64,000 nt of DNA from an uncultured virus (IMG/VR IMGVR_UViG_3300035698_018388) (IMGVR_UViG_3300035698_018388), one strand, 5' to 3'; counted from the stretch's first letter, positions 7,067 to 63,089 are shown. Notes: generated from the sequence alone by a model not told the origin. Numbers and translations are program-made.

Positions 7067-7084
7067 TTGTCTCCTCCAATAAAA

Positions 7085-8476: not shown

Positions 8477-8477
8477 T

Positions 8478-9128: not shown

Positions 9129-9137
9129 TCTGTACTC

Positions 9138-46398: not shown

Positions 46399-46427
46399 AA
46401 TATATTCGTTATAATACCATATGACAA
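46399..46427 (-). promoter_or_regulatory. sigma70-type promoter for the morphogenesis arm
   Basis: TTGTCA-17bp-TATATT on minus strand about 45 nt upstream of terS; atgacaata occurs twice. Confidence 0.5.
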
Positions 46428-47188
46428 TAAAAAAGATTATAATTGCCTTTATTTGCGAAAAAGCATGTATAGAACGTAAAAAATATATTGATTATAGTAT
46501 ATATGGCCTCTTAAGTACCATTATACTTTTATTGTATTCTTTCAATTACTTCTATATAAGAACTGATAAGAACTCCTTTAATACCGGCTTTGAATAAAAA
46601 ACCGAAGAAAAGGGGAACAATGTGGTATTTTACTTAAATATACCCATGTTATATCACATTTTTATGCTATAAATACAGTAACTTAGCAAAATAGCTGAAT
46701 CCCCGATTAACAGGGACTAACAGAAGCCGCTTGCAATATGGCATAAAAACAGTCACTTATAGTCAGTTGCAGGTCCCCGATTGAAGGTACTTTACAAGCG
46801 GCATTTAATCCCTTATTCTATACGGCTTCGCATAGAAAGCGGCCCAATGATATCAGGGATCTACAGCGTTTTTAAAAGTTGCCATTTTCAATGGATCGAA
46901 ATGGGTTTTTTCAGTCCCTTTTGTAAACGAGCCATTGAAGCGGCTTTAGGTGGTGTTTTTTATGTTGTGAAGGCGCTTCAATCGGGGCTTTATGAAATTG
47001 GCTCTAAAAAACGTAAAATATGACGATTTATTGCATTTTTAGGCTGTTTTTAGCCTAAGTGACCGATATATAACGAAATAATAATTTTTTAAGGTGTTTT
47101 TAGGTCTTTGAATATCGTCAATGATTATAGTCAGTTAAAAACGGCGCTGCCTGGTAGCCGATCGGGGCATTTATGGCCTGTTTTTATG

Positions 47189-47216
47189 TTGCATACAGCA
47201 GCAGGGGATATATAAT
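47189..47216 (+). promoter_or_regulatory. sigma70-type early promoter
   Basis: TTGCAT-16bp-TATAAT. Confidence 0.5.
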
Positions 47217-47219
47217 GGT

Positions 47220-48078
47220 TGTGGTTCCGGGGTCCGGTGCCTTCACGCTCTTTACATAACGTTTTAATGATCGAATTTTTTAATGGCCTTTGCCGCTGGG
47301 TTTAATTTGTTGGTCGGCATTGGCTGCGCATCCCGCAAGTTGTCTTTTGGCCTTTACAGGTTTTTTCGGTTTGTATCGCGGGCGCTGTCTAAGCTTCTGG
47401 AAATCATTAAAACTTGGGATAACCTTTTCGGTGGCCTTGTTGCGAAACAATGCCGGATCTAATCGATCCCCTTTCAAAAGTAAAGTTTTTTAATCTTCTA
47501 CAGTAACCTCTGAGATACGGTGGGCGAATTCATTAGGTTGAAAGATTTTACCATAGACCCATTCAGTGAGCCATAATGTCAAATCCAAAAATCTACCTGT
47601 CCATAAACTTCATGCATACGAGGATGTTTTTCTTCTCCCAGATGCTATATGGAATTTTTGAAATGCGTGCCTGATTTATTTAGTAGGGAGCGTCCGCATT
47701 ATGCATATATCCCACAAGTCCATTTAAAAGTAACCGCGAAACGAGAATAGAGAAGGCGAATATCTTCAGTAGCCCCAAAATAAACAAGACGGCGAAAATA
47801 TGGATTATGGTTATGTTTTAAAACATGATGTTTGTACCGGGAAGAAAATAGCGTAGGTGAAGAAATTAAGTAGCCTCATGGCAAAACCAGTCAGGAAGTA
47901 AAGATTGAATCGAGTCCAGTTATTTTAAAGCCTCGGATCTTTGCTTTCTTAAAGATTGGCTCTTATAAGTCCGGGCGGCATTACAAAGCCAATTGATCGT
48001 TTTATTGGCACTTCATGTTTAAAGGCATAACTTAGGGATTCTCCTCCTCCTTAAAGATGGGACCGGGCAACCGGTCCC
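47220..48078 (+). ncRNA. putative large structured leader/ncRNA (~850 nt)
   Basis: No credible ORF; several hairpins (ttgtt-gcga-aacaa, ggatc/gatcc, agccataat/attatggtt); ends in gggaccgg-gcaa-ccggtccc. Confidence 0.45.
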
Positions 48079-48111
48079 TACCTTTTAAGTACACGATGGA
48101 AAGGAAATAAT

Positions 48112-48330
48112 ATGAAAAGATTTATTATTATGGCTACTGGAAAAAAAGAAGTTTACGGATACTCTAAAGTGATGTGTAATTTTATTTCTTTCCGACCGGG
48201 TCGTTTGAATATTTCAGAATGTAGTATCTTTGTTGAAAACGAAGTTGATAAAAAAGTTAATGCTCTTATGACCTTCTGGAATAACGTTCCTAATAGTGGT
48301 TATTCAGATATTAAAAAAATTGAAATATAA
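48112..48330 (+). CDS. hypothetical early protein
   Basis: AAGGA RBS; enclosed by 21 bp inverted repeat. Confidence 0.6.
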   Translation: MKRFIIMATGKKEVYGYSKVMCNFISFRPGRLNISECSIFVENEVDKKVNALMTFWNNVPNSGYSDIKKIEI

Positions 48331-48398
48331 ATTTTGCATCGTGTATTTAAAAGGTAGAATATCTTAAAAAAACAAAACCTAACAAGGAGGAGTTAAAA

Positions 48399-48674
48399 AT
48401 GATTAAGAAAACTATTAATGTTGAAGAATTAAAGAACATGGTAAATTCAAGACTTTTACATTCTTTAGATGACCACAAAGGAAAACGAGAAGGTCAAATT
48501 GATTTGATCGAAACCATTCTAATGAAAACTGGAAATTATAATGGCTACAATTTTTTGGATGCTGAAAAAATGAAAGGCTCCTCAAATGGCACTACCGTTG
48601 GTATTAAAGAACAAAAAGCAGACGGAAGTTGGAATTTTGACGATACCGACCACACCCGAATTTATTTTTATTAA
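48399..48674 (+). CDS. hypothetical early protein
   Basis: AAGGAGGAG RBS. Confidence 0.7.
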   Translation: MIKKTINVEELKNMVNSRLLHSLDDHKGKREGQIDLIETILMKTGNYNGYNFLDAEKMKGSSNGTTVGIKEQKADGSWNFDDTDHTRIYFY

Positions 48675-48683
48675 AAAAAAGTA

Positions 48684-48740
48684 TTTCTAATTTCATCGGT
48701 GCTTTACTTGAAAGGGTAAAGCACTCATTGAAGATAGAAA
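48684..48740 (+). repeat. type A intergenic stem (RNase III-like), copy 1
   Basis: tttctaatttcatcg-gtgctttac..gtaaagcac-tcattgaagatagaaa. Confidence 0.75.
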
Positions 48741-48770
48741 GTTAACGTAAAACAAATAAGGGGGAGAAAA

Positions 48771-48944
48771 ATGTTAAAAACAAGTACGAGAAAAACAAAG
48801 TATGGATACCGTGGATATGTTATTTGTTACAACGGCAAAAAAAGGTTATGGTGTGAAAGTGCAGGAATTGACAGGATCAAAAGAGAACATGCTCAAGAAG
48901 ATGCGAATTTGAGAAAAAAAGATAGAGAACAAACATGGGTTTAA
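48771..48944 (+). CDS. hypothetical early protein (57 aa)
   Basis: MLKTSTRKTKYGYRGY...; AAGGGGGAGAA RBS. Confidence 0.65.
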   Translation: MLKTSTRKTKYGYRGYVICYNGKKRLWCESAGIDRIKREHAQEDANLRKKDREQTWV

Positions 48945-48948
48945 TAAA

Positions 48949-49013
48949 TATCGAAACGGGGAGTAATCCCCGTCTATGTAAAGTGATTCTTTGCATACTG
49001 ACGAGATAAATCA
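48949..49013 (+). ncRNA. hammerhead ribozyme, type II (canonical core)
   Basis: tatc-GAAA-cgggga/tccccg-TC-tatgtaaag/ctttgcata-CTGACGA-gata; loop tgatt pairs with 3' aatca; predicted cut after 48974. Confidence 0.92.
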
Positions 49014-49039
49014 AACAACAATTAAATAAGGAGGAGAAA

Positions 49040-49549
49040 ATGATTACTTTAGAACAAGCAAAAAAACTTTCCAACGGACAAATTATTTTTCATGCAGTTG
49101 CAAAAAATGCCGATGGTTCTCCCATGAGATGGAGAGTAAACGGGATGGTGAAGTTGTGGAAGCGTAATCCCAAACGGATTCAGGTTCCTTTGAAGCATGG
49201 TCTCTATGATCACGGCTATCTGGTCGAATCGAATTTGAAAGAATTCTTTCTGACAGAAGAAAAAGTTAAAATGGCAGTTTGCTCCTGTGGTCTTCAATGG
49301 CAATGGGATTTTGATGTTGACACTTTCTTCTATGCCAACACGGATGAAGAAGTTAAAACGGTTGATTTGTTTCCCGATTCTGGTTCTGTTGAAGACGATG
49401 ACGATGAAATCCACGGCGTCACCGTTTATATCTGCTCTTGCGGAAAAGTAAATTCTGCTATTATTAATAATGGCGGGGCGACCGTCGTTCAGATCAAAGA
49501 ATGGGATAAGATCGATTGGGAAAATGATTTGAATTCGTACTGTTTCTAA
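49040..49549 (+). CDS. hypothetical early protein
   Basis: AAGGAGGAGAA RBS; stop lies inside type A stem. Confidence 0.75.
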   Translation: MITLEQAKKLSNGQIIFHAVAKNADGSPMRWRVNGMVKLWKRNPKRIQVPLKHGLYDHGYLVESNLKEFFLTEEKVKMAVCSCGLQWQWDFDVDTFFYANTDEEVKTVDLFPDSGSVEDDDDEIHGVTVYICSCGKVNSAIINNGGATVVQIKEWDKIDWENDLNSYCF

Positions 49550-49641
49550 TTTCATCGGTGGTTCAAGGATCAAAATGGGAGGGTAACAACTGATCACTTT
49601 ATTCTTCAATTAGATTCTTGAACCACTCATTGAAAATAGAA
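49543..49641 (+). repeat. type A intergenic stem, copy 2 (extended apical stem)
   Basis: Same base and tcg/tcat internal loop; gtggttcaagga/ttcttgaaccac upper stem. Confidence 0.75.
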
Positions 49642-49670
49642 GTTAACGTAAAACAAATAAGGAGGAGAAA

Positions 49671-49961
49671 ATGTTAAACAACTTTAAAAAAGTAAGAGAG
49701 TTTGATGACAACGATTGGGACGGTTTGGCTGGTGCTGAAAAATTTGAAGATGGAAGTCTTCCTGTAATTAGGGAAGCAACAAATTTTATGGCTATTGGTG
49801 ATGCAACCGGAATTGAAATTTATCTGGAGGCCGATGCCGAAAACAATTTTAATGTTTCAATCAAAACCAGTCAAAAAGTAATCGCAGCATTCATTGAAAA
49901 TATGGATGCCAATTTAACCGAAGAAAAACTTTTGGCAATGGGATTTAAAGCCGTTTATTAA
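49671..49961 (+). CDS. hypothetical early protein
   Basis: AAGGAGGAGAA RBS. Confidence 0.75.
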   Translation: MLNNFKKVREFDDNDWDGLAGAEKFEDGSLPVIREATNFMAIGDATGIEIYLEADAENNFNVSIKTSQKVIAAFIENMDANLTEEKLLAMGFKAVY

Positions 49962-49964
49962 AAG

Positions 49965-50045
49965 CGTATCAGGTCCTGAGCGGCAGGGGGTAGCAATACT
50001 CCCTGCGTTGCGATTAACGAAGTATGTCAGGACATACTTCAAAAA
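49965..50045 (+). ncRNA. pistol-like ribozyme, circularly permuted (P1 on the 3' side)
   Basis: P2 cgta, TCAGG, tcctga, GCG, P3 10 bp GNRA hairpin, GT, tgcg; then P1 gaagtatg/catacttc with loop tcagga, then AAAAA; predicted cut 50007/50008. Confidence 0.75.
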
Positions 50046-50060
50046 TAAGGAGGAGAAAAA

Positions 50061-50285
50061 ATGAAAGTTGATAAGAAAATAATTGATGCCGGAATATCAG
50101 AAAAGAAAATTGTTGCTCAGTTGGCCGTCATAGTCAAGAATATTGACAACCGACGTTTTCTATTCAAAAGAATTAAAAACCTTTATACGGCTAATCTGGT
50201 GGCTTATTACTATGCTGCCAGGACGTATGCGGATTGGAATTTATCAGCAGCAATCAGAACGGCAATTTTTGAAAGAGCACTTTAA
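50061..50285 (+). CDS. hypothetical early protein
   Basis: AAGGAGGAGAA RBS. Confidence 0.75.
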   Translation: MKVDKKIIDAGISEKKIVAQLAVIVKNIDNRRFLFKRIKNLYTANLVAYYYAARTYADWNLSAAIRTAIFERAL

Positions 50286-50342
50286 TTTCTGTTGTCTTCG
50301 GTGTCATATGTGAAAGCATATGACACTCATAGAAAATAGAAG
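50286..50342 (+). repeat. type A intergenic stem, copy 3
   Basis: tct-tcg-gtgtcatatg/catatgacac-tcat-aga, covarying with other copies. Confidence 0.75.
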
Positions 50343-50369
50343 TTAATATAAACATAAGGAGGAGAAAAG

Positions 50370-50603
50370 ATGAGAATGACAAAAGAACATTTTGCCGCCA
50401 TTAAAAAAGCAATGGATGAAACGATGAAGCGATATCCAAAAATGAAACAGGAATATAAAAAACAAAGTCTCAGCAAAATCCGCTATGCATGGGATATTTT
50501 CAATGCTTCTTTCCGATCAGATTATATTTGTAAATTTCTTTATCCATATTTAAACGATTCGCATATTCAAACAGCACTTCTTAAAATCGTAGGAGAATAT
50601 TAA
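50370..50603 (+). CDS. hypothetical early protein
   Basis: AAGGAGGAGAA RBS; R..WD...LY.YLND.HI.TAL. Confidence 0.75.
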   Translation: MRMTKEHFAAIKKAMDETMKRYPKMKQEYKKQSLSKIRYAWDIFNASFRSDYICKFLYPYLNDSHIQTALLKIVGEY

Positions 50604-50605
50604 AT

Positions 50606-50680
50606 CCTATTAGGTCTTGTGCTGGACAGGATTGCTCCTGTCCATTGGGTGAAACGTCAAGTGGCAAGAGACTTGACATA
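50606..50680 (+). ncRNA. permuted pistol-like element, divergent core
   Basis: ccta, TTAGG, tcttgt, GCT, P3 ggacagga/tcctgtcc, AT, tggg; P1 gtcaagt/acttgac loop contains gcaaga. Confidence 0.6.
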
Positions 50681-50707
50681 ACAATTAACTAAGGAGGAGA
50701 AAAGAAA

Positions 50708-50908
50708 ATGGCAAAAATGAAAATTGCATCGGACAATGTGAAGATGAATGTGGATGATGGAATCCTGACGATCAAAGTCAATTTGAAAAAAGACTTTGGT
50801 GAAAGCAAATCCGGGAAAACGATTATTGTTGCTTCTACTCTGGGCAACAAAAAAATCGAAGGAACGGAAATGACAATGGGATTGAACATCTACAAGTACG
50901 CTGAGTAA
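50708..50908 (+). CDS. small conserved hypothetical protein
   Basis: LTI.V.L....G.SKSGKT.IVAST.GN; AAGGAGGAGAA RBS. Confidence 0.8.
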   Translation: MAKMKIASDNVKMNVDDGILTIKVNLKKDFGESKSGKTIIVASTLGNKKIEGTEMTMGLNIYKYAE

Positions 50909-50966
50909 TTTCTGTTTTAACCAGTACTCTTAATCCTAAAATTAAGAGTACTCATGAAGATAGAAG
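50909..50966 (+). repeat. type A-related intergenic stem, copy 4
   Basis: tttctgtttt...agtactcttaat/attaagagtact-catgaagatagaa. Confidence 0.7.
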
Positions 50967-50997
50967 TTAAACAACAACAACAAACAAGGAGGAGAAA

Positions 50998-51243
50998 ATG
51001 AAAAAAGTAAAAGGAAGTGATCTTCGGTTACGAGATGAAATCAGAAGTTTTAATGATAGCCCTTACAACACATCAACCGTTATTAAAATTGAAGAACATT
51101 CTGTCCATTTGTTTCGGCCCTATGTTCACACTTCTGATTTTTCATCGACTGCCGGAGTAATCCCGTATGTTGGATTTGAAAACTATTCAATCGGTAAAAA
51201 TACGGAAGTTGAATTGCTTCGCAGGAACAAAGCTCCAAAATAG
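50998..51243 (+). CDS. hypothetical early protein
   Basis: AAGGAGGAGAA RBS. Confidence 0.75.
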   Translation: MKKVKGSDLRLRDEIRSFNDSPYNTSTVIKIEEHSVHLFRPYVHTSDFSSTAGVIPYVGFENYSIGKNTEVELLRRNKAPK

Positions 51244-51263
51244 ATTTCTACAGGGAGACAAAA

Positions 51264-51458
51264 ATGAAAAGCGATTTAAGCGGAATTTATTTTAATGGTT
51301 CTCCAATTGATCCTGATTGCTTTATCCCCAGAAATAAAGATACAAAAGAAATAATGGACTCCGCAATGGCAATCAAAAAAAGTATTTATCGGAAACCAAC
51401 AAAAAGATTCTCCTGTCAAGATGAAAAAGATGGGCCTTTAAAAATTATTCATTTCTAA
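51264..51458 (+). CDS. hypothetical early protein
   Basis: GGGAG RBS; stop inside type A stem. Confidence 0.6.
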   Translation: MKSDLSGIYFNGSPIDPDCFIPRNKDTKEIMDSAMAIKKSIYRKPTKRFSCQDEKDGPLKIIHF

Positions 51459-51508
51459 TTTCATCGGTGTCATACTTTGAGGAGTATGACACTCATTGAA
51501 AATAGAAG
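51452..51508 (+). repeat. type A intergenic stem, copy 5
   Basis: gtgtcatact/agtatgacac upper stem with conserved base. Confidence 0.75.
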
Positions 51509-51538
51509 TTAACCACAACAACATAAGGAGGAGAAAAA

Positions 51539-51853
51539 ATGTTAAGAAAATTTGAAAAAAGCGACTATGTGAAGTATCCCGGTGTTGAATCAAAAGACTG
51601 CCAAATTGACGACGATCTAAAAATGATGATAAAAGGTATAGAGTTCAAAGCCACTTTGCTTCGTGATGGATCATTAGTTCATCTTTATTGCTACAACGAA
51701 GATGGGAAAATGGTTCTAATGTATTATCGCAATGTTTCAACAAACAACTTCGCAGTTGAAGTTACAAAAGCTCTTTCGTCAATGTCGTCAATTACCGAAA
51801 ACTTTTTAATGACCGCTCTCGGTTTTGAAAAAAACACATACCGGTCTTTTTAA
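51539..51853 (+). CDS. hypothetical early protein
   Basis: AAGGAGGAGAA RBS. Confidence 0.75.
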   Translation: MLRKFEKSDYVKYPGVESKDCQIDDDLKMMIKGIEFKATLLRDGSLVHLYCYNEDGKMVLMYYRNVSTNNFAVEVTKALSSMSSITENFLMTALGFEKNTYRSF

Positions 51854-51866
51854 AAAGGAGTATAAG

Positions 51867-52031
51867 ATGGACAGGAAGCAAAAGCGGTTCATAAAGAAAA
51901 AAGTCAAGTCGCTTGGATCAAGATCGGAAGCCAAATTATTTTATCGGAGTAACGATGCCGTCAGCAAATTTGCAAATGATTTTGCTGAAGAAATCTTTCC
52001 GGTAGAAATCACAAGGAGAAAAAAGAAATGA
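51867..52031 (+). CDS. small basic protein ending in ITRRKKK
   Basis: AAGGAG RBS before ATG 51867. Confidence 0.6.
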   Translation: MDRKQKRFIKKKVKSLGSRSEAKLFYRSNDAVSKFANDFAEEIFPVEITRRKKK

Positions 52032-52198
52032 TTAACATGATTGCTTTAAAAAGTTATGATGACAAAATGCACGTTTCCAATTTTAAAGACCGAGAAAAGG
52101 CATTTGAAAAGGCACAAGAGCTAATTGATACCGGACAGGGATTGCAAGTAATCCTTCTTTGCGATTCTGAAATTATCTTTAATGAAAACAGTTTCTAA
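52028..52198 (+). CDS. hypothetical protein (56 aa)
   Basis: ATGA coupling, AAGGAG RBS; stop inside type A stem. Confidence 0.6.
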   Translation: MINMIALKSYDDKMHVSNFKDREKAFEKAQELIDTGQGLQVILLCDSEIIFNENSF

Positions 52199-52248
52199 TT
52201 TCATCGGTGCTTTACTTGAAAGAGTAAAGCACTCATTGAAGATAGAAA
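52192..52248 (+). repeat. type A intergenic stem, copy 6
   Basis: Near-identical to copy 1. Confidence 0.75.
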
Positions 52249-52275
52249 ACAATAACAAACCATAAGGAGGAGAAA

Positions 52276-52521
52276 ATGAAACTATCAGAATTTTTTAATG
52301 ACCTTTCAACTATTTTCTTTAAACATGGAGATCTTGATTTAAAGTTTAAAATTTTTCATCCAGAATGCCCAATCAATAACGAAACGGTTGCAAAGGAAGG
52401 AACTCTTTTACTTCCAATAGATACGGATGAAATAATTGAAAATGTCCATCTTGGAAACGGAAACAAAAAAGAAAGAGTAACACCAGCAACACAATTAACA
52501 ATAGTAATTGAATGTAAATAG
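52276..52521 (+). CDS. hypothetical early protein
   Basis: AAGGAGGAGAA RBS. Confidence 0.75.
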   Translation: MKLSEFFNDLSTIFFKHGDLDLKFKIFHPECPINNETVAKEGTLLLPIDTDEIIENVHLGNGNKKERVTPATQLTIVIECK

Positions 52522-52591
52522 TGTCGAAACGGGGAGCCTAACGTTCCCCTTCTATGTAAAGTGATTCTTTGCATATTGATAAGACAAATCA
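52522..52591 (+). ncRNA. hammerhead ribozyme, type II (U3-A8 core variant)
   Basis: tgtc-GAAAc-ggggagc/gttcccc-tTC-stem I-TTGATAA-gaca-aatca; predicted cut after 52552. Confidence 0.82.
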
Positions 52592-52622
52592 ATTTTATTC
52601 ATAATTAACTAAGGAGGAGAAA

Positions 52623-54077
52623 ATGGAAAACAAAGCAAAAGAAATCGTCAGCTACCTAAGAGCGGGATTTTCAACATTCTGGATTCCAACGGCTGAACCA
52701 ATGAGATTAGAATCTTATATCCAACCGATCATTGAAGACTTTGAATCCAAAGCGGGAGACAAGTGGAATGTGAAATCGTGGCGATGCACCATTGACAACG
52801 GGACTCCGGAAGACAAAGATCCGGTGAAGTTTTTAAATAAACTTTCAAATGATGACTCCCCGGAAGGAACTGTCTTTTTCCTTCACAACTTCAATTGGTT
52901 CATCGAAAAGAATAAGCTGCTTGTCCAAATTATTCAGGACCAGTCTCCGGTCTGGGCGAGTCAGGGAAAAGCGATTGTTGTTATTTCTCAAAGTGCAAGT
53001 ATCCCGGTTGAATTGCAAAAGTTTTTTTGTTTATTGAAATTAGATCTGCCGAATGAAGAAGAAATAATTAAATCGGTAGAAAAGATTTCTTCGGCAATTC
53101 CAAATGCAAAACCGGATAAAAAATGCCTTCCAAAAATTGTCAATGCTGCTAAGGGATTAACGTTAAATGAAATTGAAAACGTTTTCTCTTTATCACTTGT
53201 CGAAAAGAGTGCAATCGCACCGGAAGTGATTAACAGTTACAAAGCCCAAATGATTGCCAAAACGGGATTTCTGGAAGTTATTCCGCCGACAAGAAATTTT
53301 TCTTCAATTATCGGTTACGATAGCTGGAAGCAATTTACTCTTGAAACGGGTCGTGACCCACGGAGTAAAGGTTCTCTTTTGATTGGTCATCCGGGAACCG
53401 GCAAGACCATGTTGCTTTATGGAACTGCCGGTGAGTTTCCAGACAAGTCTACCGTAAAACTTGTTATTGGAAAACTCTTTTCAAAATTTGTTGGTGAAAC
53501 GGATGCGAATGTTGATTACGTTATTGATTTCCTAACAGCAATCGGTAATTGCAATTTAATTATTGACGAATTCGAGAAGCAATTCTCGGGCGTTGGTGGT
53601 TCTGACGATGGAACGGGTGGAACAACTATCCGGGCAAATTCCAGATGGCTTGACTTTCTTCAATTCAGACCACCGGGAATTAATGTTTATGGAACCGCAA
53701 ACTCTGTTCGTGGTATTCCACCGGAGTACTTAAGAGCCGGTCGTTGGGATGTTGCTCCCTTTTTCGTTGGATTGCCTTCTGATAATGTTAAAGGAGAAAT
53801 CCTAAATCATTATCTGAAAATTAATGAAATGAAAAAACCGGCTGCTTCTTTAATCCCGAAGATGGAAAAATGGGCTGGATGCGATATTGAAGCATGTTGC
53901 AATCTGGCAAGTATGCGGAGCATTTCATTAATTGAAGCCTCTAAGTTTATCAGGCCTCAGGCATTAACGATGAAAAGGGAAATTGACGAGTTAGAAAGTT
54001 GGGCAAAGGATCGGTGCATCCCTGCTGAAGATGCTCCCGTATCAACGCCCATAAAGAGACGGAAGTTAGCGATCTAA
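52623..54077 (+). CDS. AAA+ ATPase, Ycf46/SpoVK-like
   Basis: GHPGTGKT Walker A, LIIDEFEK Walker B, PPE.LR.GRWD, SK.VGET. Confidence 0.9.
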   Translation: MENKAKEIVSYLRAGFSTFWIPTAEPMRLESYIQPIIEDFESKAGDKWNVKSWRCTIDNGTPEDKDPVKFLNKLSNDDSPEGTVFFLHNFNWFIEKNKLLVQIIQDQSPVWASQGKAIVVISQSASIPVELQKFFCLLKLDLPNEEEIIKSVEKISSAIPNAKPDKKCLPKIVNAAKGLTLNEIENVFSLSLVEKSAIAPEVINSYKAQMIAKTGFLEVIPPTRNFSSIIGYDSWKQFTLETGRDPRSKGSLLIGHPGTGKTMLLYGTAGEFPDKSTVKLVIGKLFSKFVGETDANVDYVIDFLTAIGNCNLIIDEFEKQFSGVGGSDDGTGGTTIRANSRWLDFLQFRPPGINVYGTANSVRGIPPEYLRAGRWDVAPFFVGLPSDNVKGEILNHYLKINEMKKPAASLIPKMEKWAGCDIEACCNLASMRSISLIEASKFIRPQALTMKREIDELESWAKDRCIPAEDAPVSTPIKRRKLAI

Positions 54078-54137
54078 TTTCTATTTTAACGCTTGCCTTT
54101 GATTTTAGGAGGTCAAGGGCAATCATGAAAATAGAAA
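54078..54137 (+). repeat. type A-related intergenic stem, copy 7
   Basis: tttctatttt...ttgcctttgat/gtcaagggcaa-tcatgaaaatagaaa. Confidence 0.7.
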
Positions 54138-54192
54138 ATGAAAATTTCAAAACCGTGTTATAATATTAATATCAACCCATAAGGAGGAGAAA

Positions 54193-54360
54193 ATGAAAAA
54201 GGCAATTGGAAAAAAAGAAATTATTGAAATTTTTGAATTCGATCCAAAATGGAGAAAAGACGGAACAAGTCTACCACTTTGCCGACATCTTCGCCGTCTT
54301 CTCCCCGCTTACAAAAAAGAAAATGGATACCGAATTGAAATTACAGAAGTTAAACCTTAA
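54193..54360 (+). CDS. hypothetical protein (55 aa)
   Basis: MKKAIGKKEIIEIFEF...; AAGGAGGAGAA RBS. Confidence 0.7.
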   Translation: MKKAIGKKEIIEIFEFDPKWRKDGTSLPLCRHLRRLLPAYKKENGYRIEITEVKP

Positions 54361-54429
54361 CAGCAGATAGCCATTAGGATCTGTGCGGTAGCAAGTAATT
54401 GGAAGATTACTTGCTACGTTGGCTAAAAA
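54361..54429 (+). ncRNA. pistol-like element lacking P1, copy 1
   Basis: gcagat, agcca, TTAGG, atctgt, GCG, P3 gtagcaagtaat/attacttgctac, GT, tggct; predicted cut 54418/54419. Confidence 0.65.
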
Positions 54430-54464
54430 TTTTATTAATGTAAAAACAAAATAAGGAGGAGAAA

Positions 54465-54689
54465 ATGAAAAAAATTGTAATCACTCTTGGCAAGAACGGT
54501 TCTAAGAAAGTTGAAACTTTTGGTTTCAGCGGCCCGAGTTGTAAAGAGCAAACCGGCTTTCTAAATAATATTTTTGGCGCTCCTGTAGAATCGGAGTTAA
54601 AACCAGAATTTTATGAAGAAAACGAAACGGAGTCTAACGTAATGTTAGATGTTCACGGACTGCCTGAAGGTGGCCGCTTTTGCGGATAA
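54465..54689 (+). CDS. DUF2997-like protein
   Basis: I.I....G...V...GF.G.SC...T.......G......LKPEFY. Confidence 0.8.
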   Translation: MKKIVITLGKNGSKKVETFGFSGPSCKEQTGFLNNIFGAPVESELKPEFYEENETESNVMLDVHGLPEGGRFCG

Positions 54690-54735
54690 AAAAATCTTTA
54701 AAAAATATAATCCGTTATCCAAAAGGAGAAAAGAA

Positions 54736-55107
54736 ATGAGCCATATTTCAACTTTTTCTGAAAGAATCAAAAACGTCAAGAAGCTTGTAGAGATTGCAAA
54801 AAAATGTGGTTATGAAGTAAAAGAAGATGTGACCGTAACCATGTTCGGTTCTCAAAAGGTTTTTAATGCCGTCTCTATTTCACTCCCCAAATGGGGATAT
54901 CCGGTTGCCATTAGTTCTGTTGGAGACGTTCTTTATGATTTCTTCGGCGCTGAAAAAGGACCGGGGGTTTTTGAACAGCTTGGCAGTCTTGTCCAAAATT
55001 ACAATGAAGCAATTGTAATGGATGAAATTCAGTATGATTGCATCACAAGCGTCGATACCATAGAAAACAAAACCACCGGAGATCGTGTCATTACAATCAC
55101 AATCTAA
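54736..55107 (+). CDS. DUF1257/Ycf35-like protein
   Basis: MSHIST..., LP.W.YPV, YD...G...L..L.Q.Y; AAGGAG RBS. Confidence 0.75.
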   Translation: MSHISTFSERIKNVKKLVEIAKKCGYEVKEDVTVTMFGSQKVFNAVSISLPKWGYPVAISSVGDVLYDFFGAEKGPGVFEQLGSLVQNYNEAIVMDEIQYDCITSVDTIENKTTGDRVITITI

Positions 55108-55167
55108 TTTCTGTTTTAACGCTTGCCTTTGATTTAAGGAGGTCAAAGGCAATCATGAAGATAGAAG
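55108..55167 (+). repeat. type A-related intergenic stem, copy 8
   Basis: Near-identical to copy 7. Confidence 0.7.
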
Positions 55168-55202
55168 TTAATATTAACACAACACCAAACAAGGAGGAGA
55201 AA

Positions 55203-55502
55203 ATGGAAAAGAAATTTGCACAATCAATTTTGGATGCTGCCGAAATAAGAGAAGAATCTTATGATAATGTTGCAGCAGAAACAGCATCAAGAAAAGAAAA
55301 GTATCCAGATTTTTCAACATATTATCGGAAGACGATTGTAAAATCGGCGGAAGAATCTTGCAAGAAAAACAAGATTAATGAAGCCTTTGCAGAAGTCATC
55401 GATTGGGCTTTGTATTCCCATTGGAATGACATCATCGATTGGGCTCAACGAATTCTTGGAAAAGTTAATGCCCATGAGAAAAAAAAGAATAACAATTTCT
55501 AA
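55203..55502 (+). CDS. hypothetical early protein
   Basis: AAGGAGGAGAA RBS before ATG 55203. Confidence 0.75.
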   Translation: MEKKFAQSILDAAEIREESYDNVAAETASRKEKYPDFSTYYRKTIVKSAEESCKKNKINEAFAEVIDWALYSHWNDIIDWAQRILGKVNAHEKKKNNNF

Positions 55503-55550
55503 TTTCTTCGGTGCCGTAACTTCGGTTATGGCACTCATAGAAAATAGAAG
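55496..55550 (+). repeat. type A intergenic stem, copy 9 (cUUCGg loop)
   Basis: gtgccgtaac-ttcg-gttatggcac. Confidence 0.75.
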
Positions 55551-55580
55551 TAAACAACAACAACATAAGGAGGAGAACCG

Positions 55581-55931
55581 ATGAGAACTAAAATTGCAAG
55601 AAACGAATGTCTTTTCTGTAATTTGTTTAATGGTTTTGTATGCGAATGGGGGAATTCCGAAGATTGGAAGTTTGTCTTCCATAACCACATGACCAAGTCG
55701 ATGATCGATGACTCCCTCCAGAAATGCCGCTTGGTCACGGAGGCAAACAGGATCACGGATACCAGAATCAAGATCGAAAGGTTCTGGGGATTCAAAATAA
55801 ACAAACAGGTCGGTCCCAAAAGAACGTTCCTGTTCATTGCCCCGTTATATGTCAAACTGATTAAGGAGTATATCACCAATTTCGCTTTCACAATTCCCGT
55901 TCACTTCTGGAAAATGAAATCCAATTTCTAA
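55581..55931 (+). CDS. hypothetical early protein
   Basis: AAGGAGGAGAA RBS. Confidence 0.7.
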   Translation: MRTKIARNECLFCNLFNGFVCEWGNSEDWKFVFHNHMTKSMIDDSLQKCRLVTEANRITDTRIKIERFWGFKINKQVGPKRTFLFIAPLYVKLIKEYITNFAFTIPVHFWKMKSNF

Positions 55932-55981
55932 TTTCATCGGTGTCATACTTTGAGGAGTATGACACTCATTGAAGATAGAAA
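55925..55981 (+). repeat. type A intergenic stem, copy 10
   Basis: Near-identical to copy 5. Confidence 0.75.
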
Positions 55982-56006
55982 ACAACAACAACATAAGGAG
56001 GAGAAA

Positions 56007-56270
56007 ATGAAATTTTTAACGTGCAAAGAAAGAATGGAAAAAATAAGAAAAATAAAAGATGAAGCAAAAAAACCAATCGAATGCAAAAGCTGCGGAATGG
56101 AAATTTCAAGAACGGCAAAAACCTGCCCCTATTGCGGAGAATTGGCATCAGGTGAAAAGGTAGCCCAAGCAGGGAAGGCAATGATCTTCTTCGGTTTGGG
56201 ATTTATCGGTGTAATTGGGTTAGTTGCATTTGGATTAATTATTTTTGCAATTATATTTGGGAATGTATAG
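56007..56270 (+). CDS. zinc-ribbon membrane protein
   Basis: C.SCG.EIS..A..CPYCG plus C-terminal TM; AAGGAGGAGAA RBS. Confidence 0.75.
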   Translation: MKFLTCKERMEKIRKIKDEAKKPIECKSCGMEISRTAKTCPYCGELASGEKVAQAGKAMIFFGLGFIGVIGLVAFGLIIFAIIFGNV

Positions 56271-56272
56271 GG

Positions 56273-56342
56273 TGTCGAAACGGGGAGCGTTATGCTCCTC
56301 TTCTATGTAAAGTGATTCTTTACATATTGATAAGACAAATCA
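56273..56342 (+). ncRNA. hammerhead ribozyme, type II (U3-A8 variant)
   Basis: Stem III ggggagc/gctcctc, stem I tatgtaaag/ctttacata; predicted cut after 56303. Confidence 0.82.
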
Positions 56343-56377
56343 AAAGCAACTAACAGCTAACTAAGGAGGAGAAAAAA

Positions 56378-56803
56378 ATGGAAAACAAAGCAAAAGAAAA
56401 AAAACCGAAAAAAGGAACAATCAAAAAGAAAAGAATGCCAATTATTAAAAACAAAAAAGATGAATTTATGGCGATTGTAAAAAGGATTCAATCGGCCAGT
56501 CCAAAAGAACTCGATCAGTTAAAAGAAGACATTGGTGTTTTAACTGATCAGATTGAAGAAAAAGAAAGTGGCCTTGCCGAAATAAAAGAAATGACACTTG
56601 AAGCAGAAAAGGCATTTGTAAAAGCCAAAAAAATCTTTGAAAGGATTACCCAAAACGGGGATAAATTTTTCAAAGACAAAAAAGGACCAATCAATTCGGA
56701 TATAATCAATTTCCTTTTCACCGAACAAGAACATGATACAATCAAAGAGTATTTATATACAATCGAAGAGTTGTTCGATTTTTACGCTACCTTGACAGAT
56801 TAG
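56378..56803 (+). CDS. hypothetical coiled-coil protein
   Basis: AAGGAGGAGAA RBS. Confidence 0.75.
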   Translation: MENKAKEKKPKKGTIKKKRMPIIKNKKDEFMAIVKRIQSASPKELDQLKEDIGVLTDQIEEKESGLAEIKEMTLEAEKAFVKAKKIFERITQNGDKFFKDKKGPINSDIINFLFTEQEHDTIKEYLYTIEELFDFYATLTD

Positions 56804-56875
56804 TGTCGAAACGGCGAGGGCAAGACCCTCGCCTTCTATGTAAAGTGATTCTTTGCATATTGATAAGACAAATCA
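56804..56875 (+). ncRNA. hammerhead ribozyme, type II (U3-A8 variant)
   Basis: Stem III ggcgaggg/ccctcgcc; predicted cut after 56836. Confidence 0.82.
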
Positions 56876-56913
56876 ATTTTATTAACGTAACAATTAAATA
56901 AGGAGGAGAACCA

Positions 56914-58014
56914 ATGAAGTTAATCGGATTTGGTAGTACAGTAAAAGGAACAGCAATTCATGGGATTATGGGGATTCGTGAAGGGGTAAAGAAAAATTCT
57001 GCTCTTTGCGATAAAAGAATCGTCGGGCTTATTATCGACAAGGGTTTGACTGCCGAAATGGTAACTTGCAAAAAGTGTTTAAAGAAGGCCTCTATCTTAA
57101 AAGGGGAAAAACCCAAAAAGAAAGCACCGGACAAAAAAGCACTTTCGCAAACAACTCCTGTTCCGGCAAAGAAGACTCCAGCACCGGTAAAGGAAACGGC
57201 TAAGAAGCCACCTATAAAGCCCAAGGCAACACCCAAAACACCGGTCAAGCCCAAAACCAAACCGGTCAAAAAAGCACCGGTTAAAAAGGCACCTGCTAAA
57301 AAAGCATCTGCTGCTGTTCCACCGAAAACAAAGCAAAAACAAATTGAACTACCGCTGAAGGCTTTAAATGAATTCAAACTCGATCAACAATCAACAAACG
57401 GTTTATTTTTTATAACTCATACTCCATCTGAAAAAGTCTTCTTCAAAAACATTGAAGCCGGTCTCGCAACCGAAATTTTGAAAATTGTAAATCAACTGAC
57501 CGTCGGTTGGAATGGGAAAGAAAGTCTTCCCAAGGAATTTCGGTCTTCCGTTCTTACTGCATTTAAACAGGCTCATGTAAATTTGGAATTGGCCCTGCCA
57601 ACAAAATTTGAAGAACGGGAAGAAAAGGAACAAAATGATGAACCGCCGAAAATAACAAGACGGGGAGTCAAAAAAGGTAATTCCAAAACGGAAACGAAAA
57701 TAACAAGACGCCATGCAAAAAAAAGATCAACTGTTAATATTGATCAGCCGATTACAAGGAGAAAAAGGACTCCAACAAAGGTTGTCCGGCACTTCTTACA
57801 TTATGGAGGACAACTTACATCTGTTCTGGTTGAACTGGTAACCGAATTTGGGTTTACCGAAACCAGAGCACAAGCAAAATTCAAATCTATTCTCCGGAAA
57901 ATAACCAGAATACAAAGAAGAACGGTCGTTCATACCATAACAAATCACCCGTTAAACGACCACTACATTTTTTTACCGTCAAGAAAATTACCGGAAGATG
58001 AAGCTAAGGAATAA
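56914..58014 (+). CDS. basic protein with Lys/Pro/Ala-rich (histone H1-like) linker and ITRR repeats
   Basis: PAKK/PVKK repeats, N-terminal Cys cluster, three ITRR motifs. Confidence 0.75.
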   Translation: MKLIGFGSTVKGTAIHGIMGIREGVKKNSALCDKRIVGLIIDKGLTAEMVTCKKCLKKASILKGEKPKKKAPDKKALSQTTPVPAKKTPAPVKETAKKPPIKPKATPKTPVKPKTKPVKKAPVKKAPAKKASAAVPPKTKQKQIELPLKALNEFKLDQQSTNGLFFITHTPSEKVFFKNIEAGLATEILKIVNQLTVGWNGKESLPKEFRSSVLTAFKQAHVNLELALPTKFEEREEKEQNDEPPKITRRGVKKGNSKTETKITRRHAKKRSTVNIDQPITRRKRTPTKVVRHFLHYGGQLTSVLVELVTEFGFTETRAQAKFKSILRKITRIQRRTVVHTITNHPLNDHYIFLPSRKLPEDEAKE

Positions 58015-58021
58015 ACCTTAA

Positions 58022-58089
58022 CAGCAGATAGCCATTAGGATCTGTGCGGTAGTACTCAATTGGAGGACTGAGTACTGCGTTGGCTAAAA
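58022..58089 (+). ncRNA. pistol-like element lacking P1, copy 2
   Basis: Core identical to 54361 copy, different P3 (gtagtactca/tgagtactgc); predicted cut 58079/58080. Confidence 0.65.
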
Positions 58090-58119
58090 TAAATTAATAA
58101 ACAACATAAGGAGGAGAAA

Positions 58120-58995
58120 ATGAAAAGTCAGAAGGTAGATCTTCACGAAGACGGAATTCTTATTTCCATAAAGATTAGAAAGTGGGATGCTCGTAAATCG
58201 CAGAATGTCAAACAATTAGGAAAAGACATTCCCGCTGAAATTATTAGAGCATCGAAAAGTCTTATTGATGACCGAACCGTTCTCAAGGACTTTTCCCGGC
58301 TTGGAAGGGAGGCAAAACATTTTATAAAAATGAATAGTGCTCCTTTCCCGGTTGATAGTGTTTTCTGGATTCCCAAAGAAAGAGTAATTGCCATAGACGA
58401 AAAGCTCATTGATATCGAACAAAGATTTACAGTTTTAAAAAATGAGCTTGCAAAAAACATCGGCAAATTTCAGAAGCGTTATGCAAAAAAATATCCTGCA
58501 TTTTATGACCCTGAAAAATATCCCTCTCCAGAAGAAATAAAAGCAAAATTTAATATCAAATGGAGATTCTTTGATATGACATTACCAACAACAAAGAAAG
58601 GTCTTTCTGTAAAGATGCTTCGCCGAGAAGAAGAAAAAGCAAAACAAATGGTGAAGGAAATTGAAGAAATGACCCTCAATATGTTTGGTAATGCGATCAT
58701 AAGAAGACTTGCGAAACTGAATACTCAGTGTAGCGATGGCAGGGCAAATCAGGGAACTTTAAATTCGATAAATAAACTTCTGAAAAATTGGGAAGACCTC
58801 TGGGGTAATCATGTTGACGATAACTCCTTCAGAATGGCAATCAACCGAATTAAAAAACAAATGAAAAAAACAGATGCGGTAAGACTCAGGGACAACGATG
58901 ATTTCAGAAACAAAGTCGAAAAGGAAACTAAAAAGATCATCGGCAAAATTAAGAACGTTCCCAACTTCCAGTTGAACCGAAAAATTTCTTTGTAA
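58120..58995 (+). CDS. DUF3150-like protein
   Basis: I.I..W..RK, K.LID, FWIP, YP....I..KF...W pattern; AAGGAGGAGAA RBS. Confidence 0.6.
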   Translation: MKSQKVDLHEDGILISIKIRKWDARKSQNVKQLGKDIPAEIIRASKSLIDDRTVLKDFSRLGREAKHFIKMNSAPFPVDSVFWIPKERVIAIDEKLIDIEQRFTVLKNELAKNIGKFQKRYAKKYPAFYDPEKYPSPEEIKAKFNIKWRFFDMTLPTTKKGLSVKMLRREEEKAKQMVKEIEEMTLNMFGNAIIRRLAKLNTQCSDGRANQGTLNSINKLLKNWEDLWGNHVDDNSFRMAINRIKKQMKKTDAVRLRDNDDFRNKVEKETKKIIGKIKNVPNFQLNRKISL

Positions 58996-59093
58996 AAACC
59001 GGCCTGACGAAAATAAAACAGGGTTAAACCGCCGAAGCACTTGAGAAGTACTTTATAAGTATTTGAATTAATGGGCAATAAAAAATATTGCAA

Positions 59094-59122
59094 TTGCCCG
59101 TTATTTAATGTTAGGTTATAAC
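59094..59122 (+). promoter_or_regulatory. possible promoter for replication genes
   Basis: TTGCCC-17bp-TATAAC, overlapping an inverted-repeat arm. Confidence 0.4.
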
Positions 59123-59161
59123 CCTGTTTTATTTTTAAATAAACGCATATGGAGATAAGAA

Positions 59162-59605
59162 ATGAAAAAAAAATTAACGCTCTGTCTTTACTGTGAATTC
59201 GCCCCGCCATTGTTCAGCGAAAAAAAAACAAGATGCCCTCAATCTAAAAAGATGGTAAACACCCAAAGCAAGAACTGTAAAAAATTCTCCCCGAAAAATT
59301 ATTTTCGCTGCCTTAAATCTAATCAACGGATACACTTTGCTGCATGCATTGGCCGCCGACTTAATACACAACTAAGTCCACATGAAAAATGCAAAAAGTG
59401 TCGGCAATTTGAAACAGAAATTTTGCCAATCATAACTTCATTTGGAATCGAAATGCAAAAAAGACCGAAAAAAAAGAAAGGGTCAACAATTACAAGACGA
59501 GAAAAAACAGAAACAATTGAAGAACCAAAATCAAAAATAACAAGACGGGGAAAAACAAAAATCGCAAGGCGTAAAAAATCAACGATCACAAGGAGGGGAA
59601 AATAA
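59162..59605 (+). CDS. Cys-rich basic protein with ITRR repeats
   Basis: Several Cys pairs; tail TITRR..KITRR..KIARR..TITRR. Confidence 0.7.
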   Translation: MKKKLTLCLYCEFAPPLFSEKKTRCPQSKKMVNTQSKNCKKFSPKNYFRCLKSNQRIHFAACIGRRLNTQLSPHEKCKKCRQFETEILPIITSFGIEMQKRPKKKKGSTITRREKTETIEEPKSKITRRGKTKIARRKKSTITRRGK

Positions 59606-59980
59606 ATGAAGGTAGTAAAAGCCTCAAATTATCAATCCGCATATGCCGTTCTAACCGGAAGGTGGTTGCGGATAAACACGATAGAATCAACATTTGATAG
59701 AGATGAAGAAAACGGCCAAATATTACCCTCTAAAATTGAAAGTCCTGAAAAAACATTATTAAAAAAAGAAGCATTTGAATTATTATCTGCCGAAGCCAAA
59801 GAAATAATAAATACCATTTTAAATGGCCCCGAAGAAATTCTCGATCTATTTGCAAGTCCTGTCGAAAAGAAAATAAATAAGAGGAGAATCACAAAGTACT
59901 ACTGTGATCAATGGAATTCAAAATTAATTGTCAACTCTGTTATTGCCGAGATAAAGGAATGGACACAAAACCTCAAATAA
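59606..59980 (+). CDS. hypothetical protein (possible DNA-binding)
   Basis: ORF abutting upstream stop; LS.EAKEII helix. Confidence 0.6.
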   Translation: MKVVKASNYQSAYAVLTGRWLRINTIESTFDRDEENGQILPSKIESPEKTLLKKEAFELLSAEAKEIINTILNGPEEILDLFASPVEKKINKRRITKYYCDQWNSKLIVNSVIAEIKEWTQNLK

Positions 59981-61350
59981 AAATTCTTGATGCCGTTCAT
60001 TGCAAAGCAAATGCCAAAGCAAGGAAATTAATACTCCCTTGTCTGACGGTAAAAATTGCAACAAGAGAAAAAACGAAATACGGAACCGTCCCGGGGACAG
60101 GAACCAAATCACTTATCACCGGGTATAATGGTTCTGCAGGAATCTTCTTAACTGGTTTTTTGCCGAAAATTAAAAAGTACTGCAAAAAAAATGAAATAAA
60201 AATTAAAATAAAAGGAATGGAGGAGAAGATTGTCCCTGAGACAAAAAGCCCAAAATTAAAAGGGATAACATTCAGGAACAATCAAATAAAAGCAATTAAA
60301 AAGGCTTGCAGAAAAGGCCGAGGGCAAATCGTATTTCCTACAGGAAGTGGGAAGACGATTATAGCCCTCGGCCTTTTTTTGTGCTTTAAATCCAGTGTTA
60401 GATTATTCCTTTGTCACACTAATGATATATACGATCAAACAATAGCGGAGTTAAAAAAATATAAATTAAAACATTATGAAATTACTACCAAATCAAATTG
60501 GGATGAAATTAAAAAAAAGAAATCCTGCATATTAATTTCAAAAGTTCAATCATTTGCAAGAATAAATATTGATAATTATATTGACTTCATTGATATGGTT
60601 ATTGTTGATGAGGTACACCATGTGAATAAAGAAGATAGTCAATATGGGAAAATCCTAAAACACATGCTTGCCCCTATTAGGATTGGCCTCACCGCAACAA
60701 TTGATCCAAACAAATTAAAAGCATTAATAGCAGAAGGACTATTCGGACCGATAATATATGAACTATCAATAAAAGAAGGAGTAGAACTCGGACAAATAGT
60801 AAAACCAAAAATAAACTTAGAGGCGGTTCCTTATGATATAAGAATAAATAAAAAGGGAAACTACAAATTTAAAGATCTCTATAAATATGGCATTGTAGAA
60901 AACAGAGCCAGAAATAGAATTATTGCAAATATAGCGAAAGAAGAAGTTGATAAAAATAATATTGTTTTAATTCTTATTGAAAAAATTGAACATGGTGAAA
61001 GAATAAAAAAAGCTCTTGCCAGAAAAAACATAAAGGCCCCTTTTGTTCATGGTGGAACCAAAAGAGAAATTAGAACAGAAGTAAAAAACAAATTAATAAA
61101 TAAAAAAATAAATATAGCAATTGCTTCTCGTGTATGGAAAGAGGGAATAAATATTCCATCTTTAAACCATATCATAAATGCTGCTGGTTATAAGGATGAA
61201 AAAGGTGTACTACAAGCCCTCGGGCGTGGTCTGCGGCCTGATAAAAATAAATCAATGATAACCCTAACAGATTTTTGCGACCCGTACAGATTCCTCGCAG
61301 AGCATTCTATTTTCCGAATTCAAATATATATCCAAAAGGGGTGGCTATGA
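59959..61350 (+). CDS. SF2 DNA helicase (UvsW/ResIII-like)
   Basis: PTGSGKT, IVDEVHH, GLTAT, EGINIP.L, QALGRGLR motifs; AAGGA RBS before ATG 59959. Confidence 0.92.
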   Translation: MDTKPQIKILDAVHCKANAKARKLILPCLTVKIATREKTKYGTVPGTGTKSLITGYNGSAGIFLTGFLPKIKKYCKKNEIKIKIKGMEEKIVPETKSPKLKGITFRNNQIKAIKKACRKGRGQIVFPTGSGKTIIALGLFLCFKSSVRLFLCHTNDIYDQTIAELKKYKLKHYEITTKSNWDEIKKKKSCILISKVQSFARINIDNYIDFIDMVIVDEVHHVNKEDSQYGKILKHMLAPIRIGLTATIDPNKLKALIAEGLFGPIIYELSIKEGVELGQIVKPKINLEAVPYDIRINKKGNYKFKDLYKYGIVENRARNRIIANIAKEEVDKNNIVLILIEKIEHGERIKKALARKNIKAPFVHGGTKREIRTEVKNKLINKKINIAIASRVWKEGINIPSLNHIINAAGYKDEKGVLQALGRGLRPDKNKSMITLTDFCDPYRFLAEHSIFRIQIYIQKGWL

Positions 61351-63078: not shown

Positions 63079-63089
63079 AGGAGGATAAA

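Follow-up and report, generated by a model that had tools for sequence, protein, structure and literature searches.

Natural type II hammerhead ribozymes, in which loop I pairs with the 3′ tail to form a pseudoknot, were described by Perreault et al. (2011, PMC3088659). The same paper reports clustered hammerheads that flank single prophage genes and cleave transcripts of about 2 kb in vitro, as well as a natural covariation of the core pair C3-G8 to U3-A8, the U3-A8 variants being stated to be active in vitro. Approximately 1,300 U3-A8 matches have been reported in Penelope-like elements (Cervera and de la Peña 2014, PMC4209133). What the self-cleaving ribozymes of bacteria and phages are for is a question left open (PMC6765202), and it is touched by the locus described here, which contains four type II hammerheads. 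The locus lies in a 64,000-nucleotide (nt) stretch of DNA from an uncultured virus (IMG/VR IMGVR_UViG_3300035698_018388), referred to below as the window. The four elements are likely to be genuine self-cleaving ribozymes that separate the cistrons of an early/replication operon, standing there among interchangeable cassettes, with copies 2–4 probably active. They are listed with their scores in a covariance model, R1, which is introduced below.

48949–49013, + strand: type II hammerhead, copy 1; canonical core (CUGACGA, GAAA, C15.2-G16.2, GUC); predicted cut after C17 at 48974; R1 score 69.3 bits; stop codon 48942–48944 upstream and start codon 49040 downstream, both + strand
52522–52591, + strand: type II hammerhead, copy 2; UUGAUAA core (U3-A8), C15.2/U16.2 mismatch; predicted cut after 52552; R1 score 49.1 bits; immediately after the stop codon 52519–52521 and upstream of the AAA-ATPase gene 52623–54077, both + strand
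56273–56342, + strand: type II hammerhead, copy 3; U3-A8, C15.2/U16.2 mismatch; predicted cut after 56303; R1 score 45.6 bits
56804–56875, + strand: type II hammerhead, copy 4; U3-A8, C15.2/U16.2 mismatch; predicted cut after 56836; R1 score 47.1 bits

All four copies share the same order of elements: the 3′ strand of stem II, GAAA, the stem III hairpin, UC, the stem I hairpin, the core heptamer, the 5′ strand of stem II and AAUCA. Stems I and III are capped with loops and stem II is open in each of them. Copy 1 reads UAUC-GAAA-C GGGGA guaa UCCCC G-UC / UAUGUAAAG ugauu CUUUGCAUA-CUGACGA-GAUA-AAUCA, where the slash marks the cut. Copies 2–4 read UGUC-GAAA-C...U-UC, then the cut and stem I as in copy 1, followed by -UUGAUAA-GACA-AAUCA. 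The 9-bp stem I, loop I (UGAUU) and the 3′ AAUCA are common to all copies, with a single G>A change in stem I of copy 3, which places an A-U pair where the other copies have G·U. Stem II comprises 4 bp and differs by a compensated change (GAUA/UAUC in copy 1, GACA/UGUC in copies 2–4). Stem III comprises 6–8 bp and varies in sequence with pairing kept throughout: copies 2 and 3 differ by G·U to G-C and reverse changes, and copy 4 has a compensated G-C to C-G swap and 8 bp beyond the mismatch. In copies 2–4, stem III has 7–8 pairs past the mismatch and a folding energy of −12.0 to −17.0 kcal/mol, compared with −12.0 in copy 1. The minimum-energy fold of each isolated RNA consists of the hammerhead stems, and a 5-bp pseudoknot of loop I with the 3′ tail (UGAUU/AAUCA) is possible in every copy. 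The copies begin 0–4 nt after a stop codon and end 27–39 nt before the next start codon.

The conserved core, taken as C3 U4 G5 A6 N7 G8 A9, G12 A13 A14, A15.1-U16.1 and H17, is complete in copy 1. Copies 2–4 depart from it at positions 3 and 8 only, jointly as U-A. The 15.2-16.2 pair beside the cut site is C-G in copy 1 and C/U in the other three. Of the 51 positions outside stem III, six distinguish copy 1 from the variants, namely the pairs 3/8 and 10.3/11.3 (both compensated), the free N7 and position 16.2. The original prediction, made from the sequence alone, had described a canonical copy at 48949 and three copies with UUGAUAA and C15.2 opposite U16.2, and reading of the sequence bears out both descriptions. 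Its predicted cuts agree with the C17 positions listed above, and its statements that stem III varies and stays paired and that loop I matches a 3′ AAUCA hold in all four copies. The placement of the four type II hammerheads was likewise borne out by sequence reading, shuffle tests and R1.

A chance origin of the elements is excluded by the count of the stem I word, a descriptor scan of shuffled windows and the R1 scores. The 23-nt stem I word occurs four times against 0.00 expected. A loose descriptor finds 0.3 weak matches per shuffled window, and the real copies have a 9-bp stem I and a 6–8-bp stem III. The covariance model R1 was built from 29 natural hammerheads of other contigs and run on both strands of the 64-kb window with filters off; it returned exactly the four copies at 45.6–69.3 bits, with the next best match at 15 bits, although its training set consisted of matches to a pattern with copy 1's UAUG...CAUA stem I base, which favours this sub-family and makes the model not fully independent of the window. 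The Rfam model RF02276 speaks against the assignment, as it detects not one of the four copies, even when a 101-nt slice is searched at E ≤ 10. The same model found hammerheads at L067:4–69 (53.3 bits) and in L014 (41.5 bits) and missed a canonical hammerhead at L067:1741–1808, at permissive E-values too, and the one in L005. Because of these two omissions, its blank result on the window copies reads as limited sensitivity.

An alignment of 60 type II hammerheads including the window copies (A3) has 96.9% of its cells paired and a covariation score of 0.702, compared with 0.197 for shuffled sequences and 0.075–0.126 for slid partners; its 3-8 column was fixed by the way in which the sequences were collected and is no evidence by itself. 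The loop I/3′-tail helix has at least 4 bp in 53 of 59 family members, and its mean length is 4.92 compared with 3.56 with shuffled tails. At the level of sequence, the four elements are confirmed as genuine members of the hammerhead family, of type II and with a loop I/3′-tail pseudoknot.

The prediction that the 3-8 change is a compensatory pair was correct, as U3 and A8 replace C3-G8 together. The importance attached to U3-A8 as a noteworthy variant stood in part only: the variant is present and compensatory, but it is not special, natural U3-A8 having been published and 27 further distinct candidates being found in viral contigs. These came from scans for the 3-8 states in which stem II was fixed as GUC/GAC. 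Outside the window, U3-A8 was structured at 40 of 75 loci (27 distinct sequences, one of them weak). The U3·G8 state was structured at 29 of 109 loci (22 distinct) and C3·A8 at 4 of 39 (4 distinct). Judged by these counts, position 3-8 acts like any pair in a helix, and both U-A and U·G occur routinely in phage type II hammerheads. Several of the copies at viral-contig loci L176–L323 come from one sequence family that shows all of these states, which fits a path C-G > U·G > U-A. A separate scan, in which position 3 could be Y and position 8 could be R and the pattern fixed GAAAC...UCUAUG...CAUA, gave 62 matches in 61 viral loci. Both stems were present in 52 of these, all reading CUGAYGA, and the seven matches with U at position 3 were all without stem III. 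The exact stem I and core word of the window has no match in viral contigs.

The C15.2/U16.2 mismatch is a rarer feature. In A3, the 15.2-16.2 position is C-G in 54 sequences, U-A in two and unpaired in four. Three of the unpaired sequences are window copies 2–4 and the fourth is L005 (the same sequence as L008), which leaves one case among the 56 copies from elsewhere. The L005 element (391–468) is a type II hammerhead with the same mismatch and a canonical CUGAUGA core. All 22 aligned U3-A8 copies from outside the window keep C15.2-G16.2, and the combination of U3-A8 with the mismatch is found in none of them. None of the at least 120 matches listed for U3-A8 with U16.2 in the genome_contigs set was structured. 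Since the non-window U3-A8 copies pair C-G and the other mismatch has a canonical core, the mismatch is, within the sequences compared, not linked to U3-A8 in general. The joint occurrence of both in copies 2–4 is read as shared descent from one variant, in which the change of C3-G8 to U3-A8 would be ordinary and the loss of the C15.2-G16.2 pair rare. The 15.2-16.2 pair is a usual, not an absolute, feature of the family.

Whether copies 2–4 still cut has to be weighed against several points. The mismatch adjoins the cut site and is seldom seen (in 4 of 60 aligned sequences, three of them in the window). Mismatches of innermost stem III lower the cleavage rate of minimal hammerheads. To go by the title of the 2007 work of Przybilski and Hammann, tolerance reportedly depends on the surrounding elements. 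In a double-mutant scan of a type III hammerhead (eLife 2023, PMC9901934), only the G:C swap is given as rescuing the equivalent of C3-G8, the other changes having low activity. The near-identity of copies 2–4 could also come from gene conversion among repeated spacers instead of selection. It is unlikely, in our estimation, that copies 2–4 are dead or near-dead relics, copy 1 alone being able to cut, which are kept as structured spacers (e.g., protective hairpins) or by recombination among the repeated spacers. Such relics would be in line with the points on the mismatch and on position 3-8 given above, with the cost of about 20 bits that the three departures from consensus incur in R1 and with the natural core variants of low or no activity listed by Perreault et al. 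(PMC3088659). A contig from another sample, in which copy 4 runs into copy 2 through 52 letters common to both, fits recombination too, or an assembly artefact at repeats.

However, the two-base change restores the 3-8 pair, and the 27 distinct structured natural copies with U3-A8 stand against four for C3·A8. The remaining invariant core nucleotides are intact in copies 2–4, and the changes in stem III are compensated. Pairwise identity among the three copies is 50–51 of 51 outside stem III, while it falls to 11–14 of 19–21 in stem III and to 10–17 of 20–24 in the leaders down to the ribosome-binding site. By this identity, and by the pairing kept in stem III, the variant copies look constrained, in agreement with the original prediction that they are maintained. 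Contigs of four other salt-lake runs over 48300–58200 have no base differences at the hammerheads and so yield no population covariation. Copies 2–4 are probably still active, possibly slower, and may be helped by the longer stem III; that they would cut at a useful rate in vivo seems rather probable from these features. The suggestion in the original prediction that slower ribozymes tune processing is a conjecture. Perreault et al. (PMC3088659) describe a saltern hammerhead variant that required very high Mg2+, and the runs holding the window are labelled salt lake metagenome. An ionic rescue of the variants in the salt lake is conceivable on these two grounds.

The window is, judged by its genes, an uncultured, myovirus-like phage. 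Its − strand genes encode terminase, portal, major head, tail sheath, tape measure and baseplate proteins, and its + strand genes encode an AAA ATPase, a DUF3150 protein, a helicase and a primase. Megablast against phage records gave no match to the window. The nearest virus record compared (G001) has no hammerhead copy and no match to 46400–64000, and a host and prophage search of genome_contigs with the window ATPase found no relatives. The hammerheads lie in an operon with many other repeated elements in its spacers, belonging to two further types, pistol-like elements and long hairpins (class C). The operon and these elements are as follows.

48112–59161, + strand: cassette-rich operon of about 22 short genes, its likely end being marked by a large inverted repeat and U-run in the spacer 58996–59161
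48683–48740, + strand: class C hairpin, first of ten
49542–49642, + strand: class C hairpin
49955–50042, + strand: pistol-like element; core 49962–50012; RF02679 score 24.5 bits; without upstream P1; hairpin 50019–50040 with loop CAGGAC, which complements linker GUCCUG
50285–50342, + strand: class C hairpin
50597–50679, + strand: pistol-like element; AU instead of GU at the junction; loop of 3′ hairpin contains GCAAGA, which complements linker UCUUG
50908–50966, + strand: class C hairpin
51451–51508, + strand: class C hairpin
52191–52248, + strand: class C hairpin
54077–54137, + strand: class C hairpin
54361–54424, + strand: pistol-like element; RF02679 score 24.2 bits; linker complement CAGAU directly 5′ of P2
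55107–55167, + strand: class C hairpin
55495–55550, + strand: class C hairpin
55924–55981, + strand: class C hairpin
58022–58085, + strand: pistol-like element of the same build as 54361–54424 (CAGAU directly 5′ of P2)

The region from 48.3 to 58.1 kb has 20 spacers of at least 18 nt, and 18 of them hold a cassette (4 hammerheads, 4 pistol-like elements and 10 class C hairpins), which places 18 cassettes within about 9.8 kb. The cassette starts within about 10 nt of the stop codon in 15 of 18 cases; three of the four pistol-like cores start approximately 10–20 nt downstream of the stop. The ribosome-binding sites of the + strand genes in this region read AAGGAGGAG. The inverted repeat at 58996–59161 has the form AAAACAGGGTTA...TAACCCTGTTTT followed by a U-run, and is likely the end of the cassette-rich operon, because no cassettes occur beyond it. 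Promoter and terminator scans were both at chance level, with 10 terminators found and 10.6 expected. Other salt-lake contigs break into unrelated sequence at or near spacers and ribosome-binding sites (about 50041–50083, 52275, 52513, 54436, 56363–56404 and 56603–56643), a pattern suggestive of mosaicism, gene by gene, at the cassettes, or of breaks in assembly that the repeats caused.

The class C hairpins share one architecture. Single-sequence folds of all ten give 22–23 bp arranged as a lower stem, an internal loop and an upper stem, with seven different upper-stem sequences. These folds were relied on because, with a MAFFT alignment in which the upper stems were misaligned, RNAalifold gave the lower stem only. 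The commonest build, found in six of the ten, comprises about 6 bp, an A·A mismatch, 5 bp, a 2 × 3 internal loop (UC/CAU) and an upper stem of about 12 bp; the remaining four are without the A·A mismatch or have another internal loop. The stop codon of the upstream gene lies in the 5′ arm in most copies, or else immediately 5′ of it. Searches of Rfam gave no family for these hairpins and spurious miRNA matches only, and the class C word pattern has no match in viral contigs. An RNase III site comprises about two turns of double-stranded RNA. In the early operons of phages, such sites have the appearance of about 22 bp of double-stranded RNA that contain a small internal loop and recur from one intergenic spacer to the next; in phages T7 and SP82, processing sites of this kind lie between the early genes. 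By this analogy, we incline to the view that class C hairpins are sites for a host endonuclease, though their assignment to RNase III is drawn from shape alone, a further point on the debit side. Few of their unpaired positions are conserved, which makes it improbable that they represent a new ribozyme.

The helices P1, P2 and P3 define the pistol ribozyme, together with a pseudoknot in which the P1 loop pairs with the P2-P3 junction (Harris 2015, PMC4604425). A P1 hairpin 5′ of P2, with a loop pairing to the P2-P3 junction, was not found in the window cassettes, and they are called pistol-like and not members because this upstream P1 is missing. None reaches the RF02679 gathering score of 34.5 bits (24.5 and 24.2 in the window, 27.1 and 29.1 in the related contigs L001/L066). 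Two window copies and six copies of L066 instead have a hairpin about 14–21 nt past the 3′ strand of P2, whose loop is complementary to the junction. One copy pairs CAGGAC with GUCCUG, and the others pair CAAGA with UCUUG; the loops are conserved, while the stems of these hairpins vary. A single 5-mer complement is weak, as shuffled sequences reach a 5-mer in 24–40% of trials and a 6-mer in 1.5%. The elements at 54361–54424 and 58022–58085 are a third build, with no P1 hairpin on either side. The permuted order was seen in two phages only, the window and L066 (six copies at about 6500–11560); the pistol-like linker pattern matches 25 loci in viral contigs, of which only the five on L066 are real elements. 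The order looks like that of a pistol circularly permuted with its opening between P1 and the AAA linker, and on the present sequences this is a lead, not a finding. No description of a natural circularly permuted pistol was found among the titles and abstracts searched, and natural circular permutations are given as known only for hammerhead and twister in PMC10085705.

The spacer upstream of the ATPase gene carries different cassettes in related phages. In the window, it holds a U3-A8 hammerhead; upstream of the ATPase homologues, it holds a canonical hammerhead in L067 (50% amino-acid identity; the RF02276 match of 53.3 bits), a pistol-like element in L001/L066 (56%; 27.1 bits) and a repeated 61-nt hairpin in L002 (42%). 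L066 has at least six pistol-like cassettes. The 61-nt hairpin of L002 occurs at 2818–2878, 5571–5631, 5892–5952 and 7430–7490. Other repeated long-hairpin cassettes lie in the same kind of spacer in L073 (about 640–720 and 915–995), L069, L070 and L068, and those of L070 have the class C geometry (lower stem, 2 × 3 loop, 12-bp upper stem) with a different sequence. Because the three types occupy equivalent spacers and are exchanged between relatives, we infer that hammerheads, pistol-like elements and long hairpins may all serve to cut the transcript between cistrons.

The following course of events can be proposed for the hammerheads, which sit in four spacers of the long + strand early/replication operon. 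As the polycistronic RNA is made, each ribozyme would fold and cut after C17. The upstream cistron would then end in the stem III hairpin with a 2′,3′-cyclic phosphate, and the downstream cistron would start with a 5′-OH and the stem I hairpin, about 55–70 nt before the Shine-Dalgarno sequence. The hammerheads would be one of three interchangeable types of cassette that part nearly every cistron, together with the pistol-like elements and the host RNase III-like hairpins.

Cleavage might also serve another end than the plain separation of cistrons: ligation or circularisation, protection from RNases or their triggering, or the freeing of a ribosome-binding site from an anti-Shine-Dalgarno strand. 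In copy 3, the 3′ strand of stem III (CUCCUC, 56290–56300) complements the downstream Shine-Dalgarno sequence AAGGAGGAG (56363–56371). When this copy is folded with its flanks, the two pair in the minimum-energy fold, and the predicted cut would part them; such pairing is found in this copy only. Perreault et al. (PMC3088659) raise splicing or circular products but detected neither, and PMC6765202 treats the biological role that ribozymes play in bacteria as an open question. Plain processing is the better fit to the way in which long hairpins alternate with the hammerheads at equivalent spacers, and we regard these other purposes as quite doubtful. It is harder still to credit that G16.2U turns stem III of copies 2–4, together with UUCUAUGU, into a weak intrinsic terminator or attenuator. 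A + strand scan does flag stem III of copies 2, 3 and 4 and not that of copy 1. However, the scan is at chance overall, as given above, the U-run is interrupted (UUCUAUGU) and the genes continue downstream with strong ribosome-binding sites. Separation of cistrons by the four hammerheads is the reading that we retain.

Two ribozyme classes and a long hairpin that replace each other at equivalent spacers in relatives are circumstantial evidence for simple intergenic cutting of transcripts. A broader proposal, which we put forward tentatively and hold to be less probable than not by some way, is that the operon forms a naturally occurring collection of RNA-cutting cassettes, namely hammerheads, a pistol circularly permuted so that P1 is on the 3′ side, and RNase III-type hairpins. 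These would be interchangeable, doing the same job at equivalent spacers and being swapped between related phages, with the copies with U3-A8 and C/U slower or salt-dependent. If so, phage ribozymes would acquire a definite role, the separation of cistrons independently of host RNases, and the U3-A8 and C/U hammerheads would set the order or yield of processing. The locus offers a natural series, a canonical copy against copies with U3-A8 and the mismatch, for the cost of the core variant and of the mismatch. The cassette-dense operon, unusually crowded with candidate RNA-cutting signals, merits more attention than the hammerhead variants themselves.

Comparison with known systems places the parts of the locus at different distances from what has been described. 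Like the RNase III sites of T7 and SP82, the class C hairpins are long, contain an internal loop and recur between the cistrons of an early operon; unlike those sites, they are candidate RNase III substrates known here from sequence only. The pistol-like cassettes share P2, the linker UUAGG..GNGCG, P3 and the two-nucleotide GU junction with the pistol ribozyme (PMC4604425; RF02679), and their phage context with a strong Shine-Dalgarno motif is like that given for pistol ribozymes of Firmicutes phages. They differ from the pistol ribozyme in scoring 24–29 bits against 34.5, in having no upstream P1 and in the place of the pseudoknot partner, which is either part of a hairpin 3′ of P2 or situated directly 5′ of P2.

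The hammerheads are additions to the family described in 2011, and their core variant is already known and common. They agree with the type II hammerheads of Perreault et al. and RF02276 in topology, core, the short open stem II and the 5-bp pseudoknot. The UAUG...CAUA base of stem I is common to the window copies and the 52 structured viral-contig matches. Unlike the type II consensus, three window copies have U3-A8 with C15.2/U16.2, and none of the four has an Rfam match. The two-base change that keeps the 3-8 pair is the same as in other natural U3-A8 hammerheads (Perreault et al. 2011; Penelope-like elements, PMC4209133), whereas in the window the variant is joined with a lost 15.2-16.2 pair. 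The arrangement is most like that of the prophage clusters reported by Perreault et al. for C. scindens, A. caulinodans and A. tumefaciens, where hammerheads lie between single genes or short blocks and polycistron cutting is the proposed role. Unlike in those clusters, the hammerheads of the window alternate with two other types of cassette.

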